Positions 24,328 through 40,119 of a stretch of DNA of 64,000 nt are shown piece after piece. The notes under the pieces were generated by a model. The model saw only the letters and a list, made by a program, of their open reading frames with translations, was not told where the DNA came from and searched no databases. The stretch's first letter is position 1. Each line of letters opens with the position of its first letter. A program made the translations under genes and the position numbers. The DNA is from a virus, in the IMG/VR virus record IMGVR_UViG_3300037493_003260, positions 1 through 64,000 of that record. One strand, written 5' to 3'.

Positions 24328-26514
24328 TTAGGCTGCGATATTGATAATCCTGCCTTGGAACGCTTCGCAGGTCATTTGAAGTACCGAGAATTCGGCAATC
24401 AAAGTCCTGTAAGCAGACTGAAGCAACGCAAGGTCGATAGCTGACAACGGCATGAGGTCAACCATCTGCACTGCGTTACCGTCTTCCAACACTGTTTTGT
24501 CGTCGATGACGAGGGCAAAAGAATCACCATGAACGTCTTCCACAATATAGCGAGAGCCGATAATATCGACCAAGCCAAACGGGGAAAGCCATTTGGTAAT
24601 ACTGATACCAGCGGGAATATCCGCCATCGTACCAGCTCCTGCCTGGAACAGCTTGTAATAGCTGGACATCACCAGTTCGGAAATCTTCTGCAACTCACGA
24701 TAACCAACAACAACAGCTTGAGGCTTCCCACCCTTGTTCACGATTTTCTTGCAAACTGCAGTTAAATCGGAAAGAGCTAAGGGCTGATTAACGCCGCCAA
24801 CTTTGCAGTCTTGAACGTTCGTCACAATCTGTTTGTTAAGACCATCGAACTGAAGCGGAGAGACCGAAGAATCGCCGTTGATAATGGCCCATTCTTCAAT
24901 CAACGCTACGTTCAACATCTTGGTCTTAATTTGGTGCTTCTTAATATCCGTGTACGTCCCGCCAGCCATTTGTTCAAAGAACGAAACGGTAGCAAGGTCG
25001 CCCACACTGACATAAGGAGCCGATTTGTAAACGTAAGACGGCTGAGTAGCAGTCGGAAGCCCACCTTTGGCAAAAAAAGCATCCTCAGGGGCAGTTCCAC
25101 CAAGGAACAGATGACCAGCAGACTGTGCGCCTGCGGAAATGGTCGGAATTAGCTGGTACCAAGCATGCACTAATGTTACGCAATCTTTCGATTGGGATTG
25201 CTATTTCTAGCAACCTCTCATAGTTACCTATGAGGTCGGACTATATCATCACTATACTAGTGTTCGGCGTGTAGTCTCTACGGATTCTACTAGGTATTCT
25301 TAGTAGCCTTTCCTCGGTATTGTCCTTTGCAGGAGGTTCACCGATATAGCCAAATTTTACAAGGCCCATTGTGTTAAGCCTTGCCGTTCCCTTGAATCCG
25401 ATTGAGTCGGTTTCGGAGCGGAGTGTCCGTTGGTGCCATAATCGCCCAAATAAGATTTCTCTTATGGGATTGTTACACTGTAAATTAGCCAGCGGTTAGG
25501 GCATTTCTGCCTAACTCTGCATGTCACCATGCAGTTCGGACTATATCTTCAATTTAAGATTCGTCATGCACTAGGTTTGCGAATGTTGTTAATTTGATTA
25601 CTATATCCGCTAAGCCTTCTTAAATGTGTGGCGTTGAGTCTCTGAGGGAGTAAGTTGATACATTCATCTAAACGGTCTGATTTTCGTTTGATTGAAAATC
25701 GACACCCAGCTCTAATGAAAGAAGCTACGTTGAACCTGTAGTGGACAACTGGCTTAATACTACCTGCAAAGCCACCCTTACAGATTAACGGTTTGGGCCA
25801 AACTGAAACTCCAAGGGAAGTTAAAAGCTTGTTGTATTGAGCAAGTAAATCTGTGTCTGTTGAACAATAGCCTATTTGATGTCTATAGGTATCAAAGTGC
25901 TTCTGTTTAGACTTGCTAATATAACCGTCTCCATCTATAAAGCCAGTGATTAACTTATGCTTTACAATTGGAAGTGCTTCCCAGGTTTCGTCTGGTAAAG
26001 ATGACCCATTTTTCGTTGCCAGCAGTACCCATCGGCAGAGTTCGTCACACCGTACAAAAACGTTGTAAAGGAGCTTTCTAGTGCCCCGTTGCTGTTCAGA
26101 AATAGTAACCTTTCTGCCCAGTAATTTTTGTAAAGTAATTGCGACGGACTCAGCAAAGTCTTTATCGGTAACAGATAAACAAAATCTATAACAGTTATCT
26201 TGTGTAAGATTAATGCATCCATCACTGAAATAAACACCTATGAGATATGCTGTGTTTGAGTCAAGTTTAAATTGTATCATTTTACCTTTCCTGCTGATTG
26301 TCTTCTATACTCTATTATACCATATTTTTACACTTTGGTAATGGTATATTTATCAGAAGATGTTCCAGCAAATAGCCACATTATGAGACAGCGATTAACC
26401 TATCTCAGCTTGGAGGTCCTCACGAACCAACATCAAGCCGTCAACTGGAGTGGAACTAATAGCCTTCTGAATATCTTGAAGTGCTTGTTCTACGAGTTGA
26501 GCATTGTATGACAT
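24328..26514 (-). CDS. Major capsid protein, three exons: 26514-26402, 25446-25377, 25167-24328 (340 aa spliced)
   Basis: ATG 26514 with AAGGAG SD; 113+70+840 = 1023 nt in frame: MSYNAQ..LVREDLQAE-M-AIMAPTDTPLRNRLNRIQGNGKA-HAWYQL; EEWAIINGD..FDGL HK97-fold pattern. Confidence 0.92.
25168..25376 (-). mobile_element. Group I intron 2 of capsid gene (209 nt, no ORF)
   Basis: P1 AAGGCU/GGCCUU with U.G at the splice site; P10 AUG/CAU; R GUAGAGACUACACG; S GAUGAUAUAGUCC; terminal G. Confidence 0.92.
25564..26280 (-). CDS. Intron-encoded two-motif LAGLIDADG homing endonuclease
   Basis: YLIGVYFSDG and LITGFIDGDG. Confidence 0.9.
   Translation of the reverse strand: MIQFKLDSNTAYLIGVYFSDGCINLTQDNCYRFCLSVTDKDFAESVAITLQKLLGRKVTISEQQRGTRKLLYNVFVRCDELCRWVLLATKNGSSLPDETWEALPIVKHKLITGFIDGDGYISKSKQKHFDTYRHQIGYCSTDTDLLAQYNKLLTSLGVSVWPKPLICKGGFAGSIKPVVHYRFNVASFIRAGCRFSIKRKSDRLDECINLLPQRLNATHLRRLSGYSNQINNIRKPSA
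26314..26341 (-). promoter_or_regulatory. Putative intron-internal promoter for the endonuclease
   Basis: Extended -10 TGgTATAAT about 35 nt upstream of the ATG; weak -35 TTACCA. Confidence 0.55.
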
Positions 26515-26552: not shown

Positions 26553-27443
26553 TTACAGTGCTTTACCGAATTTTGAGTCCATGCTCTTATTCAGAACATC
26601 TTCACGAACCTTCTCCTGCTCGGCAGTTAAAGGTTTGCCTGACTGCACCCACTTTAGCACTTCTGCTCGTTGATTCTGGAATTGGGAATCATCGTTGTCG
26701 GTACTGTCCGCATTCTTCTCGATTATGCGCTTTCTAGGCATCGGCTTTTTCAAAAGCTCTGTTACCGCGTCGAAACGTTTTCTCAACGTCTCCAATTCAT
26801 TCGTGACCTTTGTTAAGGATTCTTTTTCTTCCTTAGCATCAGCCAATTTCTTTGCTTCTAATTCAGCAAGTTCTCTTTTCTTCTTTTCTTCTTCTGTTTC
26901 AACGACTTCTTCTTTAGATTCAGCTGCTTCTTTAGCAGGTGTTTCAACAGCTTCCTCTTTTGGGTCTTCCTTCTTGGCCTCAATTGCAGCAGCCAATTCA
27001 GCAGGAATAGCCTTGACAACCTCGGTTGCTTCATGTGTCTTAGCCTCTGGCATCACTTCTGCAACAGCCTTTGGTGCTTCAGGAGCACTCGGAGCAACAG
27101 CAGCAGCCTCTACGGGATTACTTGTAGCAGGTAGCACTGTTCCTGTTGGTGCTTCAGGCTGAATGCTTCCAACGCTTACTACAGGAGATGCAACTACAGC
27201 AGATGCCTCAACAGCGGACGGCTTAACTTCTGGCGCATCAGTAATATTACCTGTTGCAGCCCCTGCCATGGCTTTTTCGGTAGAGCTTTCACCCAGCGCG
27301 GGTGTTGCACTTGCGTTCTCTGGAGTTGCTTTAGCCCCTGGAACAGGCCTATAAGCACCTTCAAAAGCTTTTTCAAGAGCTTCGACCTTCTTCACCAAAG
27401 TCTCGATTACTGCACTAAATTTAATCATATCTTCCGTCGTCAT
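26553..27443 (-). CDS. Nested in-frame scaffolding protein (296 aa)
   Basis: GAGGAGG SD upstream of internal ATG (MTTEDM); A/E/K/P-rich, coiled coil. Confidence 0.75.
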   Translation of the reverse strand: MTTEDMIKFSAVIETLVKKVEALEKAFEGAYRPVPGAKATPENASATPALGESSTEKAMAGAATGNITDAPEVKPSAVEASAVVASPVVSVGSIQPEAPTGTVLPATSNPVEAAAVAPSAPEAPKAVAEVMPEAKTHEATEVVKAIPAELAAAIEAKKEDPKEEAVETPAKEAAESKEEVVETEEEKKKRELAELEAKKLADAKEEKESLTKVTNELETLRKRFDAVTELLKKPMPRKRIIEKNADSTDNDDSQFQNQRAEVLKWVQSGKPLTAEQEKVREDVLNKSMDSKFGKAL

Positions 27444-28295
27444 TTCGTTTATTCCTCCTCGGTTTGAAACGTTATGAGTTTGATAAGCAGTGCCAAGTAT
27501 AGCTTGCGCCTTCTTGTGAACAGCCTCAACTTCATCTGGAGTTAAGTTATATTTCTCCATTATTGCCAGTGCCGTTACGGCATGGACCTTATCGGACATA
27601 GGAAGCAGACGCTCTTTGATAAGCATGTCGTCTTTCTTGTACTTGCGAATGACCCCATAGCTGGAGTCTGCAAGCTGGTCAAGTTCTTCCCTGTCCAAAA
27701 CTTTTCTGGTTAAAGAATCCACTTTATCACGGTGGCTATGAATCTCAGCCATTAGCGGGTCCTCAGCCTCTGTAATAACAAGCCTATTAGAGTCCTCGAC
27801 GATTGCCGTTTGAAACGGTACTCCGTCAATGGACTTAACCAACTCAAAAGAGCATCCAGCGTTTGCTGGATTGTCTACAAGGGACAACTCATTCAAGCGG
27901 TATTTTGTGATACGGGTAACAGTGCGAGAACCGCCTGTTGCCAAGTCCTTTACAATCTGGACATTCTTGTGAACAGTCTGCCCACCAATAGAAAATCCAG
28001 TCAGTGTTCCATCCTTGACTTTCTGCCAGGTGTCTTCTGCGCCCTTGGAAATGTAAGCTTCGACCCACATCTTTTTGCTGTCATCATCAGGAATAATTTC
28101 CACAGCTTTGCCAACGGCTTTGGGTTCATGCATCTCTCGGATGTTTTTGCCCCAATTGGAAAAAGCTTCCTTACTGCCAGCATAGTCAACTATCTCGCCC
28201 TGCTTGTCCACAGATTCCGTGGTCGCCCATCCCGCCACAGTGCGCTTTTCCTCGTTTATTTTTGAAATCGGACAGTACAAATTAAAATCATTCAT
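26553..28295 (-). CDS. Prohead maturation protease (S78/XkdF-like) fused to scaffold
   Basis: Start reset to MNDFNLY after AGGAGG; VDKQGEIV, IREMH, LTGFSIGG, ELSLVDNPAN. Confidence 0.9.
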   Translation of the reverse strand: MNDFNLYCPISKINEEKRTVAGWATTESVDKQGEIVDYAGSKEAFSNWGKNIREMHEPKAVGKAVEIIPDDDSKKMWVEAYISKGAEDTWQKVKDGTLTGFSIGGQTVHKNVQIVKDLATGGSRTVTRITKYRLNELSLVDNPANAGCSFELVKSIDGVPFQTAIVEDSNRLVITEAEDPLMAEIHSHRDKVDSLTRKVLDREELDQLADSSYGVIRKYKKDDMLIKERLLPMSDKVHAVTALAIMEKYNLTPDEVEAVHKKAQAILGTAYQTHNVSNRGGINEMTTEDMIKFSAVIETLVKKVEALEKAFEGAYRPVPGAKATPENASATPALGESSTEKAMAGAATGNITDAPEVKPSAVEASAVVASPVVSVGSIQPEAPTGTVLPATSNPVEAAAVAPSAPEAPKAVAEVMPEAKTHEATEVVKAIPAELAAAIEAKKEDPKEEAVETPAKEAAESKEEVVETEEEKKKRELAELEAKKLADAKEEKESLTKVTNELETLRKRFDAVTELLKKPMPRKRIIEKNADSTDNDDSQFQNQRAEVLKWVQSGKPLTAEQEKVREDVLNKSMDSKFGKAL

Positions 28296-28329
28296 GCTAA
28301 GTTTCCTCCTCGGAATCTTTGTTTTATTT

Positions 28330-28611
28330 TTATTTACATCTACTGCAAAGCCATTTGCCATTTTGGTAAGTGGCCTTTGAAACTTGTTGATTGCATTTGT
28401 TACAGATGAGTGCTTTTTTCTCACCGATACCTGAGAAACCTGTAAGCCTCTCACCGTTATTCTTCAAATTTTTAAAGGCGTTGAACTTACGAGAATCGTC
28501 AATTTTACAAGTAAACGCATCCCCGCTTTCGTGTTCAACAACAAATTCGTGAGAACCTGTTCGGGTCATGCTCTTGACTGTATGCCCGTCGTCTACTTTC
28601 TTTTTAGTCAT
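28330..28611 (-). CDS. Small zinc-finger protein
   Basis: CNKC..CSRC; GGAG SD. Confidence 0.7.
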   Translation of the reverse strand: MTKKKVDDGHTVKSMTRTGSHEFVVEHESGDAFTCKIDDSRKFNAFKNLKNNGERLTGFSGIGEKKALICNKCNQQVSKATYQNGKWLCSRCK

Positions 28612-32088: not shown

Positions 32089-32366
32089 TAAGACTCCTTT
32101 TTGTGCTGAGAAAGCCATCGTTTAAGACTAGCCCTTATTTTTAATTTTGTTTCCTTAGTTAATGTTGCACCACCTGGGACTGCTTCTAAAACTAGCATTT
32201 CTGGGTATAGCTGCTGCTTTCTTAAAAGCCTTACCCAACGATGTTTGTAAGTATCAGTTACAACAGTATGGCAATGGGCATAAAGTCTCTGTTCTAAATT
32301 GGCAGTCTGTCCAACGTATCGTACTTCTTTTGTAACTGGATGGCGTAACACATAAATATAAATCAT
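32088..32366 (-). pseudogene. Internally deleted GIY-YIG endonuclease
   Basis: IYVL..RYVGQT..R..H present; catalytic E and N region missing before a NUMOD3-like ETKLKI. Confidence 0.6.
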
Positions 32367-34210
32367 TACTTTTCTTTAGAAGACTCGTTATCAAAAAATC
32401 CGATACGGAGCGTGGCGTTAATTCCTTGTTTTTTCAAGGTATCAATAGTTTTGTCCAGCTGCTCGTATTGTTTTTTGGTTTTCTGTGACCGATTTACTTT
32501 TATGTTTAAATTACCTTCGTTTTGTTTTTGCTCATGGATAGTAGGCCGCCCTGCGTCGCCATTAACTTGTGGCTCAGGTTTCGGTCCAGGAGTATCACCT
32601 GGAATAGAGGCATCTTCCATGCCTGGTTCTGTGGGCATTCCTGGCATCGGAGGCATCCCTGGGGCAACGCCCATTCCAGGAATTGCTGCGGTCGGGTCAA
32701 TCTTTTGTTCGTCAAGTTTATCCAAGTCACTCACGGGCAGCATTCCGACGGCACCCTTAATAGTGTACTCGTCGCCGCCTTCAATTGGCTTGAGGCCGAG
32801 TTTCGTTCGACGTTCATTAATAGAAATCACGCCCGTATCAATGTCGATTTTGTCAATCTGGGCACCCTGGATATTTTCTTTTGCGTCTTCAGTGTTCCAG
32901 GCAAATTTTACGTCGGTAAACTTAAATTCAGTCTTTACAATCTCTTCGTTAAAATACGACTGTAGCAAATTTAGTAGATTATTAACCCCGCGTGCTTTTG
33001 AGAGTTCAACCTGGGATTCCAGATTGGCTTTTCCGAAATCTAGAGTAAACCCAATATCCTGTGGACAAAGCCCATAGCAAGCACATTTAACAGAGGTGGT
33101 CCACTTAAGGTATTCCATCATCTGCATGTCCTGATTTGTTTGGACTCGCATTGGAATAAACTGCATCTTGTCAGAGCCTGACGCAAACACAATCTTGTGT
33201 GCTCCGCCACGACCAAGGACTTCGTTCTCCCACATCTTTTGGAAGATAGCCCGTTGGTCTTCAGTAACACTCTCTCCCAGATTTAAAACGCCTGGGGGCA
33301 CATTGGAATGCTTAAAATATTCGATGTTGTATTCATCAGCGTACAGACTGGCCGTAATAATATAAGCTGCAACTTCAAGTGGACTAAGACCGTATCCTGT
33401 GTGCTGGGGATTCTGGGTAATATATAGAAGCTCGTCATTGGCGAACTCAGCTCTGAGAACACCTTTGTCTTCCCAGGCATAGGCTGCCTCTGGGGACGCA
33501 GGGGCGGTGCCATCTTCGTTTCGGTACAGTTTAACTTCTTGGCCAGGGACTGTGTAAAGCTCTGCAAGGTCTCCATGGTAATTATAGTTCTTTACCAAAG
33601 CCCCTGCATCAAAAATAAGGATGTCTTCCAATAGTAATTCAAGCAAAATCCTAAAGGAGGAGTCTGTGTCACTGGGATGCTCAAAGATATTCTTGACTTT
33701 GTATTTGTGTGACTCGGCAGTATCTCGCACTTTCCGAATCATAATTTTAAAAACCCAGCGAATGCGGTCACGTCTTTGGCTATCGTTGATACCTGTATCA
33801 TCCAAAATCACGTCTACCTTATGCTGAACTTCCTCTTTCAAATCCTTGCTTAGAATCTCGGATTCAAAATCAGGGGTATCAAATTCGTAGGGATTGATGT
33901 AGGCTAAAAGCAGATTTTCCCAACGGTCAAGTTCAGCCTCAACAGCGTCGGTATCGGGCACAATATCCCATGCCACGTTGCTGATGTAGCCTTTTAGAGT
34001 ACGCCGAATCGCCCAGGCAATTGGGTCAGTATTCGCCAGTCTCTTGAGGGTTTCACTATTCAAAACAAAAGTCTTCTGTTGTTTCTTGTTTAGAATAGTA
34101 TTGCTAAAAGCAAATAACCCTTTGCGAGGCATCGGGTTTTCACGCCCAGGGGCGGGCCTGAATGCTTTGTTTAAATTGTTTGTTAAACTTTTGAAGAAGT
34201 CGTTAGCCAT
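32366..34210 (-). CDS. Portal protein
   Basis: YGLSPLE, F..NVPPGVL, DMQMMEY, VISINERR..LGLKPIEGGD. Confidence 0.93.
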   Translation of the reverse strand: MANDFFKSLTNNLNKAFRPAPGRENPMPRKGLFAFSNTILNKKQQKTFVLNSETLKRLANTDPIAWAIRRTLKGYISNVAWDIVPDTDAVEAELDRWENLLLAYINPYEFDTPDFESEILSKDLKEEVQHKVDVILDDTGINDSQRRDRIRWVFKIMIRKVRDTAESHKYKVKNIFEHPSDTDSSFRILLELLLEDILIFDAGALVKNYNYHGDLAELYTVPGQEVKLYRNEDGTAPASPEAAYAWEDKGVLRAEFANDELLYITQNPQHTGYGLSPLEVAAYIITASLYADEYNIEYFKHSNVPPGVLNLGESVTEDQRAIFQKMWENEVLGRGGAHKIVFASGSDKMQFIPMRVQTNQDMQMMEYLKWTTSVKCACYGLCPQDIGFTLDFGKANLESQVELSKARGVNNLLNLLQSYFNEEIVKTEFKFTDVKFAWNTEDAKENIQGAQIDKIDIDTGVISINERRTKLGLKPIEGGDEYTIKGAVGMLPVSDLDKLDEQKIDPTAAIPGMGVAPGMPPMPGMPTEPGMEDASIPGDTPGPKPEPQVNGDAGRPTIHEQKQNEGNLNIKVNRSQKTKKQYEQLDKTIDTLKKQGINATLRIGFFDNESSKEK

Positions 34211-34212
34211 GT

Positions 34213-34635
34213 TTATATCCTTTTGGAAGAACTATAATCTGCATTTTTCTCTAGAGCCTTTACTAGGGCAATGATAATTTCATGTTCTAATTTTTCGATT
34301 TGAATAGTGTAAACAGCCCGTGCTTTTTTATCAGCTATATGCTTTGAAAGAATGTCATCCACAAGAGAAAGAAGCCGATTTAAACGAACGTGCAAAAGTT
34401 CATGTATGATTGTATTATCAATTTCGTTTGGGTCTTTTTTCAGAATGCGCTTGTTTAAAAACATTGCTGCAGAACGGGTTTCTTCATCAGTGCTTACGTA
34501 TCCAAAAGTATCATAATCCGCAGACCCTTGCTTTTTCTTTCCAACCACTAAGCTAATGCTGTAGTCGCTAACCCCTAGCATATTTGCGAATTTGACGAGT
34601 CGTTGTTTTAAGTCTTTTTCAAAAGAACGTATCAT
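34213..34635 (-). CDS. Small zincin-like metallopeptidase domain protein
   Basis: TIIHELLH motif with downstream E. Confidence 0.7.
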   Translation of the reverse strand: MIRSFEKDLKQRLVKFANMLGVSDYSISLVVGKKKQGSADYDTFGYVSTDEETRSAAMFLNKRILKKDPNEIDNTIIHELLHVRLNRLLSLVDDILSKHIADKKARAVYTIQIEKLEHEIIIALVKALEKNADYSSSKRI

Positions 34636-34874: not shown

Positions 34875-35147
34875 CTATTGGTTAGGTCCAGCTTGATAGT
34901 ACGACCCAACATTTGGTGAATCGCTGCATGTTCCCATACCCACAGGGGGTGTAATTTTATTCGAGTTCACTGGCTGTTTTTGCTTTTGACCATGAGCCAT
35001 GTGCCGATTCTTGCTGCCAGCTAAATCTTCACGAACCAGCTCAAGGCCAACCACGGGTGTAGCTGAAGTTTCCTTCGACAGCACCGAAAGCTGACCGCAA
35101 AGGTCACGCAATTTTTCTAGAAGCCTCAGCCGAGCAATGCTATCCAC
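34875..35147 (-). CDS. Small protein carrying a copy of the capsid N-arm
   Basis: KETSATPVVGLELVREDL matches capsid KAISSTPVDGLMLVREDL (13/18); probable GTG start at 35147. Confidence 0.75.
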   Translation of the reverse strand: MDSIARLRLLEKLRDLCGQLSVLSKETSATPVVGLELVREDLAGSKNRHMAHGQKQKQPVNSNKITPPVGMGTCSDSPNVGSYYQAGPNQ

Positions 35148-35151
35148 AGTC

Positions 35152-35478
35152 TTAAAATACCTTTGCAACTTTCAAAATTTGGATAACAGTCCAGGTCACA
35201 GCTGCAAGGGCTGTGGCAACTTTTACAACACTTGATAAAAACTCAGATACACCTGTAGATTTCATAAACTTTGTTTCAACGGGTTGCAAACGAGCTTCTA
35301 TGTGTGCGTGTTGTTCTTTGTTGTTTTCATCGAAGGTTGTCAGGGCTACCTTAATATCCTCTAAAGCGTGAGGCAGATGATTAGTCACCTGGGTCTTGAT
35401 GGAAGCAACGTCAGATTTCAAGTCCGACACTTCGGCCTTTACTGCATTTACTTCATCGTGCATTTCCTTGTATCCCAT
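35152..35478 (-). CDS. Coiled-coil protein with C-terminal TM helix (holin/XhlA-like architecture)
   Basis: Heptad N-terminus, VTNHLPH, TM VATALAAVTWTVIQIL. Confidence 0.5.
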   Translation of the reverse strand: MGYKEMHDEVNAVKAEVSDLKSDVASIKTQVTNHLPHALEDIKVALTTFDENNKEQHAHIEARLQPVETKFMKSTGVSEFLSSVVKVATALAAVTWTVIQILKVAKVF

Positions 35479-35487
35479 AAGGTTCCT

Positions 35488-35823
35488 TTATCGTAAGTTA
35501 TTTAACGAATATTTGTTGGCCTCTAATACAGAAGCCCAATCACTAAATTTACATACTGAATGGTCAATAGCTAAATCAAATCGTGGTTTATTGCAAAGAA
35601 TGTTGTTATAAGGAATTTTATTTTTTTGAAGCCATACCTCTGTTGATGGGCCAAGACTTGCATCCCGACAGGTATAAATTAAGATGCGGTGTCCCAGGCT
35701 GGCCATTTTGTCTATGGCTTCCTTTGCGCCTGGAATTAGCGTGCAATATTCTACTTCTGAAAGAGCCATGTAATTTGGCAACGGCGTGCTAATTACGTTA
35801 TCGACTTCGATAGCGATAATCAT
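35488..35823 (-). CDS. HAD-fold phosphatase-like protein, degenerate active site
   Basis: IAIEVDNVI (E for first D), IYTCR, KP..DLAIDH. Confidence 0.7.
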   Translation of the reverse strand: MIIAIEVDNVISTPLPNYMALSEVEYCTLIPGAKEAIDKMASLGHRILIYTCRDASLGPSTEVWLQKNKIPYNNILCNKPRFDLAIDHSVCKFSDWASVLEANKYSLNNLR

Positions 35824-36170
35824 TTTTTGTTAATAGCTGTCCGTTTTACAAACGCCTTGAGCAGCCCTCTTTCGATGAGTTCGTCGTTGTAAGATGTGTC
35901 TTTTCCAGAAAGATAAAGGAACGCAAGATATGTTCCAGATTTCTCGGACTTTAAAGACTTGACGGTTACCTCTTTGTTAAGAAGTTTTTCGGTCAGTGTT
36001 TTCTTTATAAGCGTTGCCTTTTCAGGATTTTTATTTCCACGAAATTCCAAAAAGTCTATTCCTGCAAGCCGAAACTCTTGGTTTTTTAATACTCCGAAAC
36101 CCAGGTCAACAGTAAGGATAAGGCATTCCTCGCTGATAATTTCTGTTACAAGTGCCAGATATTTATGCAT
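35820..36170 (-). CDS. Staphylococcal nuclease (SNase)-like protein, degenerate
   Basis: VDLGFG..RLAGID..N.ELI..G retained; DGDT and DKYGR replaced by SEEC and EKSGT. Confidence 0.7.
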   Translation of the reverse strand: MHKYLALVTEIISEECLILTVDLGFGVLKNQEFRLAGIDFLEFRGNKNPEKATLIKKTLTEKLLNKEVTVKSLKSEKSGTYLAFLYLSGKDTSYNDELIERGLLKAFVKRTAINKK

Positions 36171-38631
36171 GTAAATCTTCCTTTATTGCATCTATTGCGG
36201 CTTTCGCATCAACCAATCCCACGCCGCATTCATCAGCGGTAAAGGCTAGCGGTTTTGCGGTTGTCTTAAGAAGGTGCTTCACTGCAGCACACCGTTCTTT
36301 ATAATCTTTGGTCCAACTTGGAGCCGCCTCAAGAATTAGTGCACAAATTCCTGCAACCACTGGGGTTGCCATAGAAGTTCCACTCATGCGTTGGTAGGGC
36401 ACAGCATCTGATTGAACAGAACAATTATTCATGGGGGTATCGGCACTTTTTACCGATGTAACCCCATTTTCGTAATAGCAACCACCATAAGAAGCTTTAG
36501 TGCCACCGCCTGGGGCTACAAGGTCAGGCTTGGTTAAATTCACACCGTTGAAAATCACAGGGCCACGGGAACTGTAGCGTGTAATCTTGTTGTCCCTGTC
36601 TACTGCACCGACAGTAATTACTTTTGCAGCACAACTAGGGGACCCAATTGTATTTGCTCCAGGGCCTTCATTTCCTGCGGCCACAACTACAACAATGCCT
36701 TCAGAAGCCAGTGCATCTGCTTCCCGTGAGATGGCATCATCAGGAGTTCCTTCGCCACCAAGACTCATGGAGATAATATCGGCTCCTTGGTCGGCAGCCC
36801 ACGACATTCCCTTAATCACGGTATCGTTTGACCCGTGCCCGCTGTCGTTTAAAACCCGTGCATCTATAAGAACAACTTTTGGGGCAACGCCACGATAAAG
36901 TTTTCCACCGCCAGCGATTACGCCAGCACAATGCGTGTTATGAGCAATAAAGCCATTTGCTGTATAGTTATGGTTTTTAGTGACTGTAAAATCATAGAGA
37001 GTGGTGTTCGTATCTTGTATTGAAATATTACAAATCTTGTCAGCAACTCGACGATGGCAGTTTGGATTCTTTAGCTTTTTAAAGTGTAAAAATTTGCCGA
37101 GTTCCGTGTTACAAGAGAGGCCTACAGCGTAGCACATATTTTTATTTCCGAAGGTACTCTTATTAGAGCTGTGTTTACAAATCCAAGAACGAATACCTAA
37201 GGCCTTAAGTAGGGAACAAAGTCCATCGGCAAATTGTTTGCTTCCAGTAATAATTCTAGCTTTGCTATTAATACAGCCATCTCCATCAATGGCCCCAGCC
37301 AAAAAAGAAAAAATAACACTTCGAGGAGACTTAGAAATAACGTAAGGTAACGTGACAGTTAGTGATTTGTTTCCAATAGGAATTCCAAGCTTATTAAATA
37401 AAAATACCAATTCTTTGTTATAGACGGAAACCCTATACGTATTGCGTTGCCTAAGGTCTTTCTTTACTTTCGGGGCATAATCAAATAACTCCTTAAAACC
37501 GTCGCAAAAATTTTGAACCAATTCAAGTGAATTACTAGTAAATTCGATTCTGGCGTTGCATCCAGCCTTCTCTTTTTTTAAATAGGACAAGTGACCGTCA
37601 GTTAATACTAGACCTACTAGGTACGCTAACTTTTCATTAACAGGCAAATTACTACCTCTAAATGGCACATAATGGTAATCATTTATATCTAACGAAGAAT
37701 CTGTAAGTTTGATGCACTCACCGACTTGGAGTTCATCAGCCCGTTTTTCTTTAATTGTCAATTCATGGCCCCTTGTTGAGGTAACCACAAAAACCTTGTG
37801 CCACGGCGTTAGGGCTAAACTACCACCTCTTGTGGTAATAGTGTACAACTTTCCAGTGTAAGGAATTTTATGTACAAATTCCATTTGGTCTGGCTCACAT
37901 ATTCCCTGAAGATTACAAGAAATGGTTTTAATGTTAAATCGTTTAATGTCTTTAACAGTAGAGCCATCCGTTAACTGGTAGGATTCTCCTGGAGATTTTT
38001 CGTATACAGTTTCGATTGTTTGCAATCCGCACAACGATGTGTACACTTTGGTATTGGCAGTTATACAGCCATGACCAACGCCATCCAGTTTTGCAATCTT
38101 GGGTGTTTTGGGGCGATTCCAAAACCATTTGCCAAAATAATCAGGCTGTGAAAAATCATACCGAGCAACTACTTTTCCTGCCAGGTCGGGGTGTCTGTCA
38201 TTGATTCCTGTATCGACGACAGCGACTTTAATTCCCTTTCCTTCGTACCCTGTTGTGGCTCTCAGTACAGAAACTTCTGTCTGAACTGCTGCCCTATCCA
38301 TATAAGCTCTGACTTGTTTCACAGGTTCAATGTCTACGTGGAGTTTCTCCTTGAGCCATTCCATTTGCTCAGAGGTTAACGCTGATTGAAATTCAACAAC
38401 CATGGCGTTAATACGCCGATGGAGTTGAATTAGTTTTCCGCCAAATTTTGCAATATCCTGAAGTTTTACGCCTGCCCGATTAAGAACTAGAAGAGCCGTA
38501 AGAAATGCGACTCCTGCAAGAAGGGGGTGCTTTGTAAAAACAGATTTAATGATTTTGCCAGCTTTAAGATATAAGAAATATCTCGGCAAAACATTTTCTT
38601 GACGTTGTAAATTTGTGATTTCTAAACTCAT
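36163..38631 (-). CDS. Subtilisin-like (S8) serine protease containing an intein
   Basis: VAVVDTGI, HG|TH, AAGN, SGTSMATP; N-terminal hydrophobic segment and propeptide. Confidence 0.93.
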   Translation of the reverse strand: MSLEITNLQRQENVLPRYFLYLKAGKIIKSVFTKHPLLAGVAFLTALLVLNRAGVKLQDIAKFGGKLIQLHRRINAMVVEFQSALTSEQMEWLKEKLHVDIEPVKQVRAYMDRAAVQTEVSVLRATTGYEGKGIKVAVVDTGINDRHPDLAGKVVARYDFSQPDYFGKWFWNRPKTPKIAKLDGVGHGCITANTKVYTSLCGLQTIETVYEKSPGESYQLTDGSTVKDIKRFNIKTISCNLQGICEPDQMEFVHKIPYTGKLYTITTRGGSLALTPWHKVFVVTSTRGHELTIKEKRADELQVGECIKLTDSSLDINDYHYVPFRGSNLPVNEKLAYLVGLVLTDGHLSYLKKEKAGCNARIEFTSNSLELVQNFCDGFKELFDYAPKVKKDLRQRNTYRVSVYNKELVFLFNKLGIPIGNKSLTVTLPYVISKSPRSVIFSFLAGAIDGDGCINSKARIITGSKQFADGLCSLLKALGIRSWICKHSSNKSTFGNKNMCYAVGLSCNTELGKFLHFKKLKNPNCHRRVADKICNISIQDTNTTLYDFTVTKNHNYTANGFIAHNTHCAGVIAGGGKLYRGVAPKVVLIDARVLNDSGHGSNDTVIKGMSWAADQGADIISMSLGGEGTPDDAISREADALASEGIVVVVAAGNEGPGANTIGSPSCAAKVITVGAVDRDNKITRYSSRGPVIFNGVNLTKPDLVAPGGGTKASYGGCYYENGVTSVKSADTPMNNCSVQSDAVPYQRMSGTSMATPVVAGICALILEAAPSWTKDYKERCAAVKHLLKTTAKPLAFTADECGVGLVDAKAAIDAIKEDLHA
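36937..38067 (-). mobile_element. Intein (377 aa) with LAGLIDADG endonuclease in the S8 protease
   Basis: HG|CITANT..LTPWH..LVGLVLTDG..FLAGAIDGDG..YDFTV..IAHN|TH. Confidence 0.93.
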
Positions 38632-38889: not shown

Positions 38890-40119
38890 TTATTTCTTTT
38901 CTTCAGGTTCTTTTTTGATATCGTCTTTTGTTGCCTCACATTTATTAGCACCCTGCCTAGCAACGGCAGCTTGCCCAATCGGAGAAGCAACGGCTACGGC
39001 ATCGTCAAAAGCATCTTTCTTTACTGGTTCTTTTACAGAAAGTTCTTGCCATGCAGATTTTGCCATGGCGACAATTTCTTCTTCGCTCAAATCTGTAATT
39101 TCTTTGAGCGTGTCAACTACGCCACGTATAAATTCTTCAGGAGCTTCCGCAGGAAGCGGCTCACCAGCATGGGCTGCGCTCACTTCAGTGGCAGCTGCTT
39201 CAGGAGCCTTAACTTCTGCAGGAATAACAGGAGCGTCAGCGGATTTATTGGTTACAATATTACCAGCTTCCGCAGGTCCAGAACTAGGGACCTTGGGAAT
39301 TTTCGGTTTCTTTGGCTTGGGAAGCAGGTCCGATAGTTGCGTGCCAAGCATATTAGCAGCAACATCAGAAACAAACGCCCCGATACCTTTTTCCGTTTTC
39401 TCGTCTTTTTGAAAACTTTTTACAGCTTTCAAAAGTTCGACATTGGACTGGTTCACATGTTCAAATCTGCCGTCAGACCACTTAACCATCAAACCAACCT
39501 GGCCTGATTTCGTCTGATACACTTTGAGTACATGCCCAACAACTTTGCTGCCATTTGACAAAGTTTTTACAACGATGTCCTGGGTCTTGATGGAGTCATC
39601 GTAATTGGCGTGTTCGGTCATGCGACCCACGCGGTCCTCTTCGTAGTTCTCCTGCGTATGCTTTTTCTCGTCAGCGTCGGCCCATTCCTCTTTGGTTTTG
39701 TCACCGTAGGGCTTGCCTTCGGTCTTTTCTGAAGGAACGGCTTCTTCTTTTTTGTCCGTAATAGCAGCGTCCTTAACAGGAGGAACAACAGCAGCATTGT
39801 CTGTTGCACCTTCTTTGCGTTCAGAAACATCCGCTTTGGAATCATACCCGCCTTCTTTTCCACGATTCTGTGCAGGGACCCCCTCGGTTGCTTTGTCCGT
39901 TGACGGAGCTTTTGGAAGCTCTGGACTCGCAGCTGATTTTCGGATGGCATCACCTGTAGTACTTGTTACTGTTTTGCTAACACATTTTTTAGCATCTAAC
40001 AATTTGTTAAGCGATTCGTTAACTAACTTCTCTTCCTCGTTAGTTAAGGGAATGCAATTCCTGCGCTTTTCGATGATTGCTTCGAGGCTTTTGCTAGTTT
40101 CTGATTTTTCCATTGTCAC
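38890..40119 (-). CDS. Putative internal head protein, low complexity
   Basis: A/E/K/P-rich; N-terminus shares a 21-aa motif with the scaffold C-terminus. Confidence 0.7.
   Translation of the reverse strand: MTMEKSETSKSLEAIIEKRRNCIPLTNEEEKLVNESLNKLLDAKKCVSKTVTSTTGDAIRKSAASPELPKAPSTDKATEGVPAQNRGKEGGYDSKADVSERKEGATDNAAVVPPVKDAAITDKKEEAVPSEKTEGKPYGDKTKEEWADADEKKHTQENYEEDRVGRMTEHANYDDSIKTQDIVVKTLSNGSKVVGHVLKVYQTKSGQVGLMVKWSDGRFEHVNQSNVELLKAVKSFQKDEKTEKGIGAFVSDVAANMLGTQLSDLLPKPKKPKIPKVPSSGPAEAGNIVTNKSADAPVIPAEVKAPEAAATEVSAAHAGEPLPAEAPEEFIRGVVDTLKEITDLSEEEIVAMAKSAWQELSVKEPVKKDAFDDAVAVASPIGQAAVARQGANKCEATKDDIKKEPEEKK

Follow-up and report, generated by a model that had tools for sequence, protein, structure and literature searches.

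The stretch of DNA analysed here, which we call the window, comprises positions 1 to 64,000 of the IMG/VR virus record IMGVR_UViG_3300037493_003260; the whole record is 84,088 bases long, and nearly all genes lie on the minus strand. Near the portal gene the window holds a small open reading frame (ORF) whose product combines an N-terminal helix, a core segment that resembles the N-terminal arm (N-arm) of the phage's own major capsid protein, and a C-terminal tail (Table 1). We refer to the N-arm-like unit as the module, and to a non-capsid protein that contains it as a carrier.

A small protein with a capsid-like N-terminal half

The small ORF is a real gene, conserved and under purifying selection. 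Its GTG start at 35147 lies where its relatives have their ATG or GTG starts; all of these relatives come from uncultured metagenomic contigs. A large protein collection contains 12 homologues of 89–93 amino acids (69–100% identity, 99–100% coverage), and a profile search of 1.84 billion cluster representatives returned 17 proteins at E ≤ 0.001, of which 14 reach E ≤ 1e-10; the 17 include P0027, a repeat protein whose match looks spurious. The family spans about 14 clusters at 50% identity. Across five DNA copies, synonymous differences per site (pS) reach 0.68–0.84 and are saturated, against nonsynonymous differences (pN) of 0.05–0.19, with the N- and C-terminal halves behaving alike. The initial annotation had named a decayed duplication among the findings that would refute its proposal; this is excluded, because the full-length ORF is kept in the homologues, pN is low and synonymous sites are saturated.

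Neither a Pfam scan (E ≤ 0.1) nor a PHROG scan assigned the small protein to any family. As judged from its sequence, it represents in its smallest form an undescribed phage family that is absent from both collections. It gives no match to the HK97-fold body of major capsid proteins (SU10_MCP, PF17236), only helix and coil being predicted, and no scaffolding-protein match in Pfam or PHROG. Public phage records gave no related sequence, either to blastn with the locus or to tblastn with the small protein or with capsid exon 3. A scan of IMG/VR with the single small-protein sequence found no relative, and a scan with the family alignment A1 found one locus; a metagenome scan added five short loci, none with the cognate capsid. 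The ESM Atlas gave no usable match. No RNA run with the sequence was present among the sequencing runs listed, and the one DNA run that contains it is a sediment metagenome, perhaps the source of the record.

The similarity to the capsid lies between residues K25–L42 of the small protein and K17–L34 of the capsid protein, where 13 of 18 residues are identical without a gap; alignment and tblastn reproduced both this count and both sets of coordinates exactly as first annotated. The many synonymous codon differences reported at the outset are equally real: by our reading of the two sequences, the codons differ at 9 of the 13 identical residues, and blastn finds no meaningful DNA similarity to the capsid gene (best 16/18 with a gap, E = 0.054). 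When the 39-residue peptide of capsid exon 1 is compared by tblastn with all six frames of the window, the match has E = 2e-4 and the next best about 0.9. If an all-against-all reading of the window is allowed for, this match is borderline by itself, and it is the relatives that settle homology.

Of 20 capsid loci, 18 have a capsid N-terminus that is matched by a profile of the N-terminal half of the small protein (E from 8.6e-5 to 0.042); the two loci that give no match are L018, where the N-terminus is absent, and L002. For the window's own capsid N-terminus the same profile gives E = 1.3e-7, with noise starting at E = 1.1. In a genome-wide search of 15 related records, the capsid N-terminus was matched in all 14 that hold one, and a profile built from non-capsid modules alone matches it in 5 of 5 records (E from 3e-10 to 4e-8). 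Comparing a profile of 25 small proteins with one of 15 capsids, hhalign pairs small-protein residues 10–44 with capsid residues 2–36 over 35 columns (96.2% probability, E = 2.6e-9). A DNA pattern of the strict motif, run over all of IMG/VR, recovered 35 stretches, namely 27 capsid N-termini of this clade, three non-capsid carriers and five without the amino-acid motif. The window's own genome holds exactly two copies of the module, one in the capsid gene and one in the small ORF.

The residues that are kept agree on the two sides. Among the 15 capsids, which diverge down to 40% identity, K17, V24, G26, L27, L29, R31, D33 and L34 are invariant; among 25 members of the small-protein family, down to 36%, the invariant positions are K25, V32, G34, L37, R39, D41 and L42, together with L13 in the helix. 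The offset between the two sets is a constant 8, and the V, L, R, D and L are invariant in 11 of 11 module segments. The small protein thus carries the N-arm sequence of this capsid clade, and the similarity is family-wide homology to the N-arm of the whole clade. The i, i+2 spacing of L-x-L-x-R-x-D has the look of one conserved face of a β-strand. In most non-capsid forms the closing D-L is followed by G-(V/I)-(R/K) and a basic stretch; the capsids have a different sequence there.

The initial annotation had placed an amphipathic helix ending in Lys before both motifs. For the small protein this agrees with the AlphaFold2 model, in which a confident helix (predicted local distance difference test score, pLDDT, 85–96) ends just past the invariant Lys25; for the capsid protein, a helix over residues 5–21 is predicted only at low confidence. 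The tail of the small protein is modelled as coil without secondary structure (pLDDT 54–67). Its signature (H/Y-G-Q-K ... P-x-G) occurs in the window protein and in all 12 close homologues, G53, Q54, P68 and G70 are nearly invariant in alignment A6, and the tail profile has no other match, either in the genome or in the loci. We also considered whether the DNA past the motif might be a remnant intron, and rejected this: there is no Rfam match there, and the tail is conserved as protein.

Carriers of the module among relatives

The module is found in proteins of very different build. In forms of about 90 residues (the window's clade, G002, L041 and many cluster representatives) it comes first and is followed by the conserved tail. 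Longer forms of 165–339 residues carry extra sequence between module and tail (P0013, which equals G001, P0014, P0019 and P0020); in P0013 (339 residues) and P0014 (261 residues) an inserted domain follows the N-terminal module, and both end in the same tail as the window protein. The module is C-terminal in G004, behind a phrog_7499 domain, and in P0028, behind a ParB_N domain (32.9 bits, cut-off 26.3). It is internal in P0035, a protein of 411 residues on a 26 kb contig, where it precedes a domain of the S-adenosylmethionine (S-AdoMet) lyase family (31 bits, cut-off 28), and in a very basic protein of about 820 residues encoded directly upstream of the portal gene in G013 and G015. In P0029 (59 residues) and the G014 protein (76 residues) the module stands almost alone. 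The tail is missing from P0029, P0028 and the carriers of G004, G014 and G013, and so defines a subfamily only.

Some of these carriers have features of their own. The G013/G015 protein (L076, 1–2466 on the plus strand, and L077) is extremely rich in Lys and Arg and has two long repeats past the module, with no family found for it. The S-AdoMet lyase family is known for its anti-restriction enzymes, and P0035 may, to judge by its domain, be an injected enzyme of this kind. The module ORFs of G004 and G014 (L034 and L075) share another conserved neighbourhood and lie between an ORF of about 155–165 residues for a multi-pass membrane protein and a zinc-ribbon-like ORF of 67–74 residues. Overall, four of the seven complete relatives (G001, G002, G004 and G014) have a non-capsid carrier.

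The capsid gene and neighbouring head genes

As the initial annotation had stated, the match becomes visible only once capsid exon 1 is reconstructed; the gene proved to be split further, into three exons by two group I introns (Table 1). Exon boundaries were placed by comparison with intronless relatives. Both introns have a U before the 5' splice site and a G as last base, and the joined product of 340 residues reads through without stops and is identical at 321 of 340 positions to the uninterrupted capsid protein of L001. The score of intron 1 was obtained with the region searched alone; this intron holds an ORF (25564–26280) that reads as a putative LAGLIDADG-type protein. For intron 2 the Rfam match spans 25217–25418, running into exon 2. 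The capsid gene is uninterrupted in the nearest relatives, L001 and L003, and also seems interrupted in L041, L008 (G003) and L017 (G006), with breaks where the N-arm motif ends or close by.

Table 1. Positions of the small gene, the capsid gene and related head-gene features in the window
Feature	Position	Strand	Basis
Small-protein coding sequence, 90 residues, GTG start, stop included	34875–35147	−	ORF list
N-terminal helix of small protein, residues 3–29	35061–35141	−	AlphaFold2, 25-row alignment A6; block pLDDT 89, 96, 85
N-arm-like core of small protein, K25–L42, K-x6-V-x-G-L-x-L-x-R-x-D-L	35022–35075	−	13/18 identical to capsid K17–L34
C-terminal tail of small protein, residues 53–90, Gly/Pro/Ser/Asn-rich	34878–34991	−	Conserved in alignment A1
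Portal, third gene downstream of small ORF	32366–34210	−	PF04860, E = 1.1e-28
Prohead protease-scaffold fusion	26553–28454	−	Peptidase_S78; phrog_9427 head maturation protease, E = 2.7e-39
Capsid exon 1, residues 1–37 plus 2 bases, encodes N-arm	26402–26514	−	ATG at 26514
Capsid N-arm core K17–L34, original of the copied motif	26413–26466	−	Invariant residues in 15 capsids
Capsid intron 1, 955 nt, group I	25447–26401	−	Rfam RF00028, 44.6 bits, E = 1e-9, below gathering score
Capsid exon 2, 70 nt	25377–25446	−	Reads as residues 38–61 of intronless relatives
Capsid intron 2, 209 nt, group I, without ORF	25168–25376	−	RF00028, 65.9 bits (gathering score 50)
Capsid exon 3, 279 codons plus stop, HK97-fold SU10_MCP body	24328–25167	−	PF17236, E = 1.7e-13
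N-terminal segment of 409-residue protein resembling scaffold C-terminus	39988–40050	−	tblastn, 11/21 identical, E = 0.018 in window

The small ORF sits in a block of minus-strand genes. Upstream lie ORFs for a subtilisin-like protein (36163–38631), an SNase-like protein (35820–36170) and a protein of 111 residues (35488–35823), and directly upstream one for a coiled-coil protein with a hydrophobic C-terminus (35152–35478). Between the small ORF and the portal gene are an ORF of 72 residues and one for an HEXXH protein (34213–34635) with weak SprT and YgjP matches. The order from the coiled-coil ORF through the small ORF, the 72-residue ORF and the HEXXH ORF to the portal gene is kept in L021 and L041. 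The subtilisin-like ORF encodes 822 residues, of which L021 (8216–8986) matches only about 259, at 73% identity; the L021 relative may be without an insert in this ORF, which the initial annotation had read as an intein. Elsewhere in the window, a tRNA gene lies at 1374–1445 on the minus strand (Rfam RF00005, 54.8 bits).

A second, converse case of motif sharing may involve the protease-scaffold fusion, whose C-terminus ends in a helix-turn-helix-like element conserved in 12 relatives. A tblastn search of the window with this scaffold motif finds a protein of 409 residues (38890–40119, minus strand), not the small ORF; residues 24–44 of that protein could be a capsid-binding signal carried by a head-internal protein, and Pfam holds no family for the protein or for its neighbour of 933 residues. 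The sharing of motifs between head proteins thus seems to be a theme of this phage. We had also taken the letters VRED in the window's scaffold C-terminus for a third copy of the motif, and rejected this as the letters are not conserved in relatives.

A possible docking tag and its rivals

Our preferred reading, which we hold tentatively and at somewhat less than an even chance, is that the module serves as a portable tag for capsid docking or head incorporation, derived from the capsid's own N-arm. Because the same invariant residues are kept in the capsid arm and in the carriers, both would have the same partner. Known partners of the N-arm in HK97-fold heads are of two sorts, the shell itself and, in the procapsid, the scaffold C-terminus. 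The module would dock its carrier at the site that normally takes an N-arm strand, on the inner face of the shell, where the acceptor would be a capsid subunit's sheet of P-domain and E-loop. Docking would take place in the procapsid, or wherever acceptor sites stand free, and a protein joined to the module would thereby become part of the head. For the window's own protein, only the conserved 45-residue tail, which is probably disordered, would serve as cargo; in relatives, whole domains would. Capsid binding, strand addition and head incorporation are all parts that we infer. Contacts of the required kind are described in a study of Thermus phage P74-26, in which an N-arm strand forms a sheet with the neighbour's E-loop and, inside the shell, a portal vertex protein adds its N-arm to the β-sheet of the capsid P-domain (PMC12407722).

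We ranked this docking tag first because the shared part is the extended segment rather than the helix that scaffolds mostly contact, and because the carriers look like cargo, with domains of DNA-binding, basic or anti-restriction type to judge from their sequences. Several observations weigh against it all the same. Three of the seven complete relatives, G003, G011 and G012, have the same capsid N-arm and portal and yielded no non-capsid carrier at E ≤ 5, which makes the function of the carrier dispensable. The carriers of G004 and G014 sit away from the portal gene, beside the membrane and zinc-ribbon ORFs. The window's own protein offers only its short tail and no recognisable cargo, and in P0035 the ParB_N (21.1 bits) and ChaB (21.6 bits) matches that precede the module fall below the Pfam cut-offs. 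The helices before the core are unlike in sequence, by our reading basic in the small protein and acidic in the capsid, so that only the K-to-L core is shared. An AlphaFold2 model of the capsid protein from 15 sequences has a mean pLDDT of 54, with 27–50 over the N-arm, and allows no placement of the arm; the solved structures 9vel, 9row and 5lii are of distant capsids that align to the body only, none to the N-arm.

Nor does the module follow the capsid of its own genome in the way the initial annotation had anticipated. In the six records that have both a capsid N-arm and a module, the cognate pairs sum to 75 over 18 positions, where the mean is 73.0 (a sum this high occurs in 146 of 720 permutations), and to 79 over 30 positions, where it is 77.0 (196 of 720); the module is no closer to cognate than to non-cognate capsids. 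This test is a weak one, its power being low because the capsid N-arms hardly differ between these records.

In the rival that we rank next, the module would bind what the capsid N-arm binds in the procapsid, the C-terminal element of the protease-scaffold, so that its carrier either rides into the procapsid on scaffold or competes with the capsid protein and tunes the nucleation, timing or size of assembly. The competitor role put forward in the initial annotation falls under this reading, which we regard as rather unlikely. Solved procapsids show scaffold C-termini on the coat N-arm. In 80alpha, a scaffold helix-and-hook binds N-arm helix α1, and the satellite protein CpmB shares the motif and competes (PMC5644958); in P22, R293 and K296 of the scaffold hook bind D14, E15 and E18 of the N-arm (PMC12005531). 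The scaffold C-terminus, conserved across the 12 relatives, is a candidate N-arm partner here, and the similar element at the start of the 409-residue protein would fit with motif sharing being in use in this phage. The contacts in 80alpha and P22, however, involve mainly the N-arm helix and acidic residues, and the helix is the very part that is unshared here. A complex prediction with the last 100 residues of the scaffold and the small protein gave ipSAE values of 0.01 and 0.00; controls were not run, and this result counts neither way.

Besides the competitor role, the initial annotation had proposed that the small protein nucleates assembly or, as its main idea, supplies the N-arm missing at the portal vertex. 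What stands of that interpretation is a small, conserved and selected protein with a real N-arm homologue; the complete relatives that lack a carrier, and the weak test in which the motif did not track its cognate capsid, argue against an obligatory structural role. As a filler, some five to ten copies would provide the strands that the missing penton owes to the surrounding hexons, stabilising the aperture or aiding the start of assembly on the portal. We consider this unlikely. It draws on the location of the gene three upstream of the portal gene in conserved synteny, on the carriers of G013 and G015 that immediately precede the portal gene, and on the precedent of a protein found only at the P74-26 portal vertex that places a strand on the P-domain sheet (PMC12407722). 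Against it count the same three carrier-free relatives, the positions of the G004 and G014 carriers away from the portal gene, the weakness of gene neighbourhood as evidence, and the large and varied fusions (ParB_N, S-AdoMet-lyase-like and the basic 820-residue protein), which would be unexpected in a structural plug. Since the module is fused to unrelated domains at N-terminal, internal and C-terminal sites, a docking or loading tag fits better than a vertex plug; the portal-vertex idea survives as a possible special case of docking, differing only in where and why the strand docks.

A further possibility, of somewhat lower probability again, is that module and N-arm share a maturation signal, a site for the S78 prohead protease lying, for example, after the invariant Lys, from which the tail or the attached domains would be freed in the head. 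HK97 is matured by cleavage after a Lys, the internal proteins of T4 lose an N-terminal targeting peptide to the prohead protease, and the protease-scaffold fusion of P2 removes 31 N-terminal residues of its capsid protein. The phage of the window encodes an S78 protease-scaffold fusion, the Lys is invariant in the capsids and in all carriers, and in P0035 and the G013 protein the module is placed where domains meet. Yet the residue after the Lys differs, being Ala in capsids and mostly Glu in small proteins, and a cleavage site alone would leave eight invariant residues over 18 positions unexplained. By our mapping, moreover, the capsid protein is without a delta domain, so that removing the module would cost it the whole N-arm; in the distant relative SU10 the mature capsid retains an N-terminal arm, and the word stem "cleav" does not occur in the paper that describes it (PMC9509320).

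Two other explanations are less probable still. The small protein could act as an immune decoy that soaks up or masks a host defence sensor of the capsid N-arm, which we think improbable. Capsid-sensing defences are known, and the circumstantial points in favour are that the gene is accessory and patchily distributed and that one carrier has a domain of the anti-restriction-type S-AdoMet lyase family; neither the varied fusions nor the location in the head block would be needed for a decoy, and the residues kept are exactly those invariant in capsids at 40% identity, suggesting that their partner is a structural one within the phage. A functionless remnant, left when part of the capsid 5' end was duplicated, is hardly credible. 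The similarity does end near the end of capsid exon 1, as fits such an origin, but the ORF is intact in the 12 homologues and about 14 clusters with constraint on both halves, DNA-level similarity to the capsid is missing, and in G001 the similarity extends past the exon-1 end.

Returning to the docking tag, among its nearest likenesses is the capsid targeting sequence of the T4 internal proteins IPI-III and Alt, a short portable peptide that takes unrelated cargo, anti-restriction proteins included, into the prohead for later injection. The module resembles it as a short portable peptide on unrelated cargo. The T4 peptide is about 10 residues long, always N-terminal, removed by the protease and not a copy of the capsid, whereas the module has some 18–35 residues, is homologous to the capsid N-arm and may be internal or C-terminal, and its targeting role is one we propose from sequence comparison. 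Encapsulin cargo-loading peptides are likewise short, borne by varied cargo and directed to the inner face of an HK97-fold shell, but they sit at the C-terminus, have unrelated sequences and are no paralogues of the shell's N-arm. The portal vertex protein of P74-26 has a globular domain outside the shell, and we found nothing in its description to say that its sequence is like the capsid N-arm (PMC12407722); the protein studied here is linked to the portal only by gene neighbourhood. In 80alpha and the satellite SaPI1, scaffold and CpmB are two assembly proteins that use one short motif on the same N-arm site (PMC5644958); there the copied motif belongs to the scaffold, whereas here the capsid's arm itself is copied, from the other side of the interface. 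SaPIbov5 Ccm is a second capsid-related protein that redirects assembly (PMC8569155); it is a full-length HK97-fold homologue, and here the N-arm alone is copied. A limited search of full-text literature turned up no description of the capsid N-arm being copied in a non-capsid protein.

Combining docking and vertex, we envision, as a speculative and unlikely extension, that heads could be loaded by self-mimicry: the N-arm copy would plug cargo into acceptor sites left empty by the missing penton at the portal, so that peptides, DNA-binding proteins and anti-restriction enzymes would be stationed at the exit and leave first at infection. Were this true, it would join the T4 targeting peptide and scaffold fusions as a third head-loading signal, one that could be used for loading phage heads with chosen proteins. 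How minor and ejected head proteins are placed and counted is poorly understood outside T4 and P22, and the module offers a sequence-defined, portable N-arm paralogue that shares eight invariant residues with the arm and occurs naturally in at least seven fusion architectures. If it serves instead as a scaffold decoy or a protease signal, it would still represent a new form of motif sharing that coordinates head assembly; if it binds the N-arm acceptor, HK97-fold shells would recruit partners by strand mimicry.

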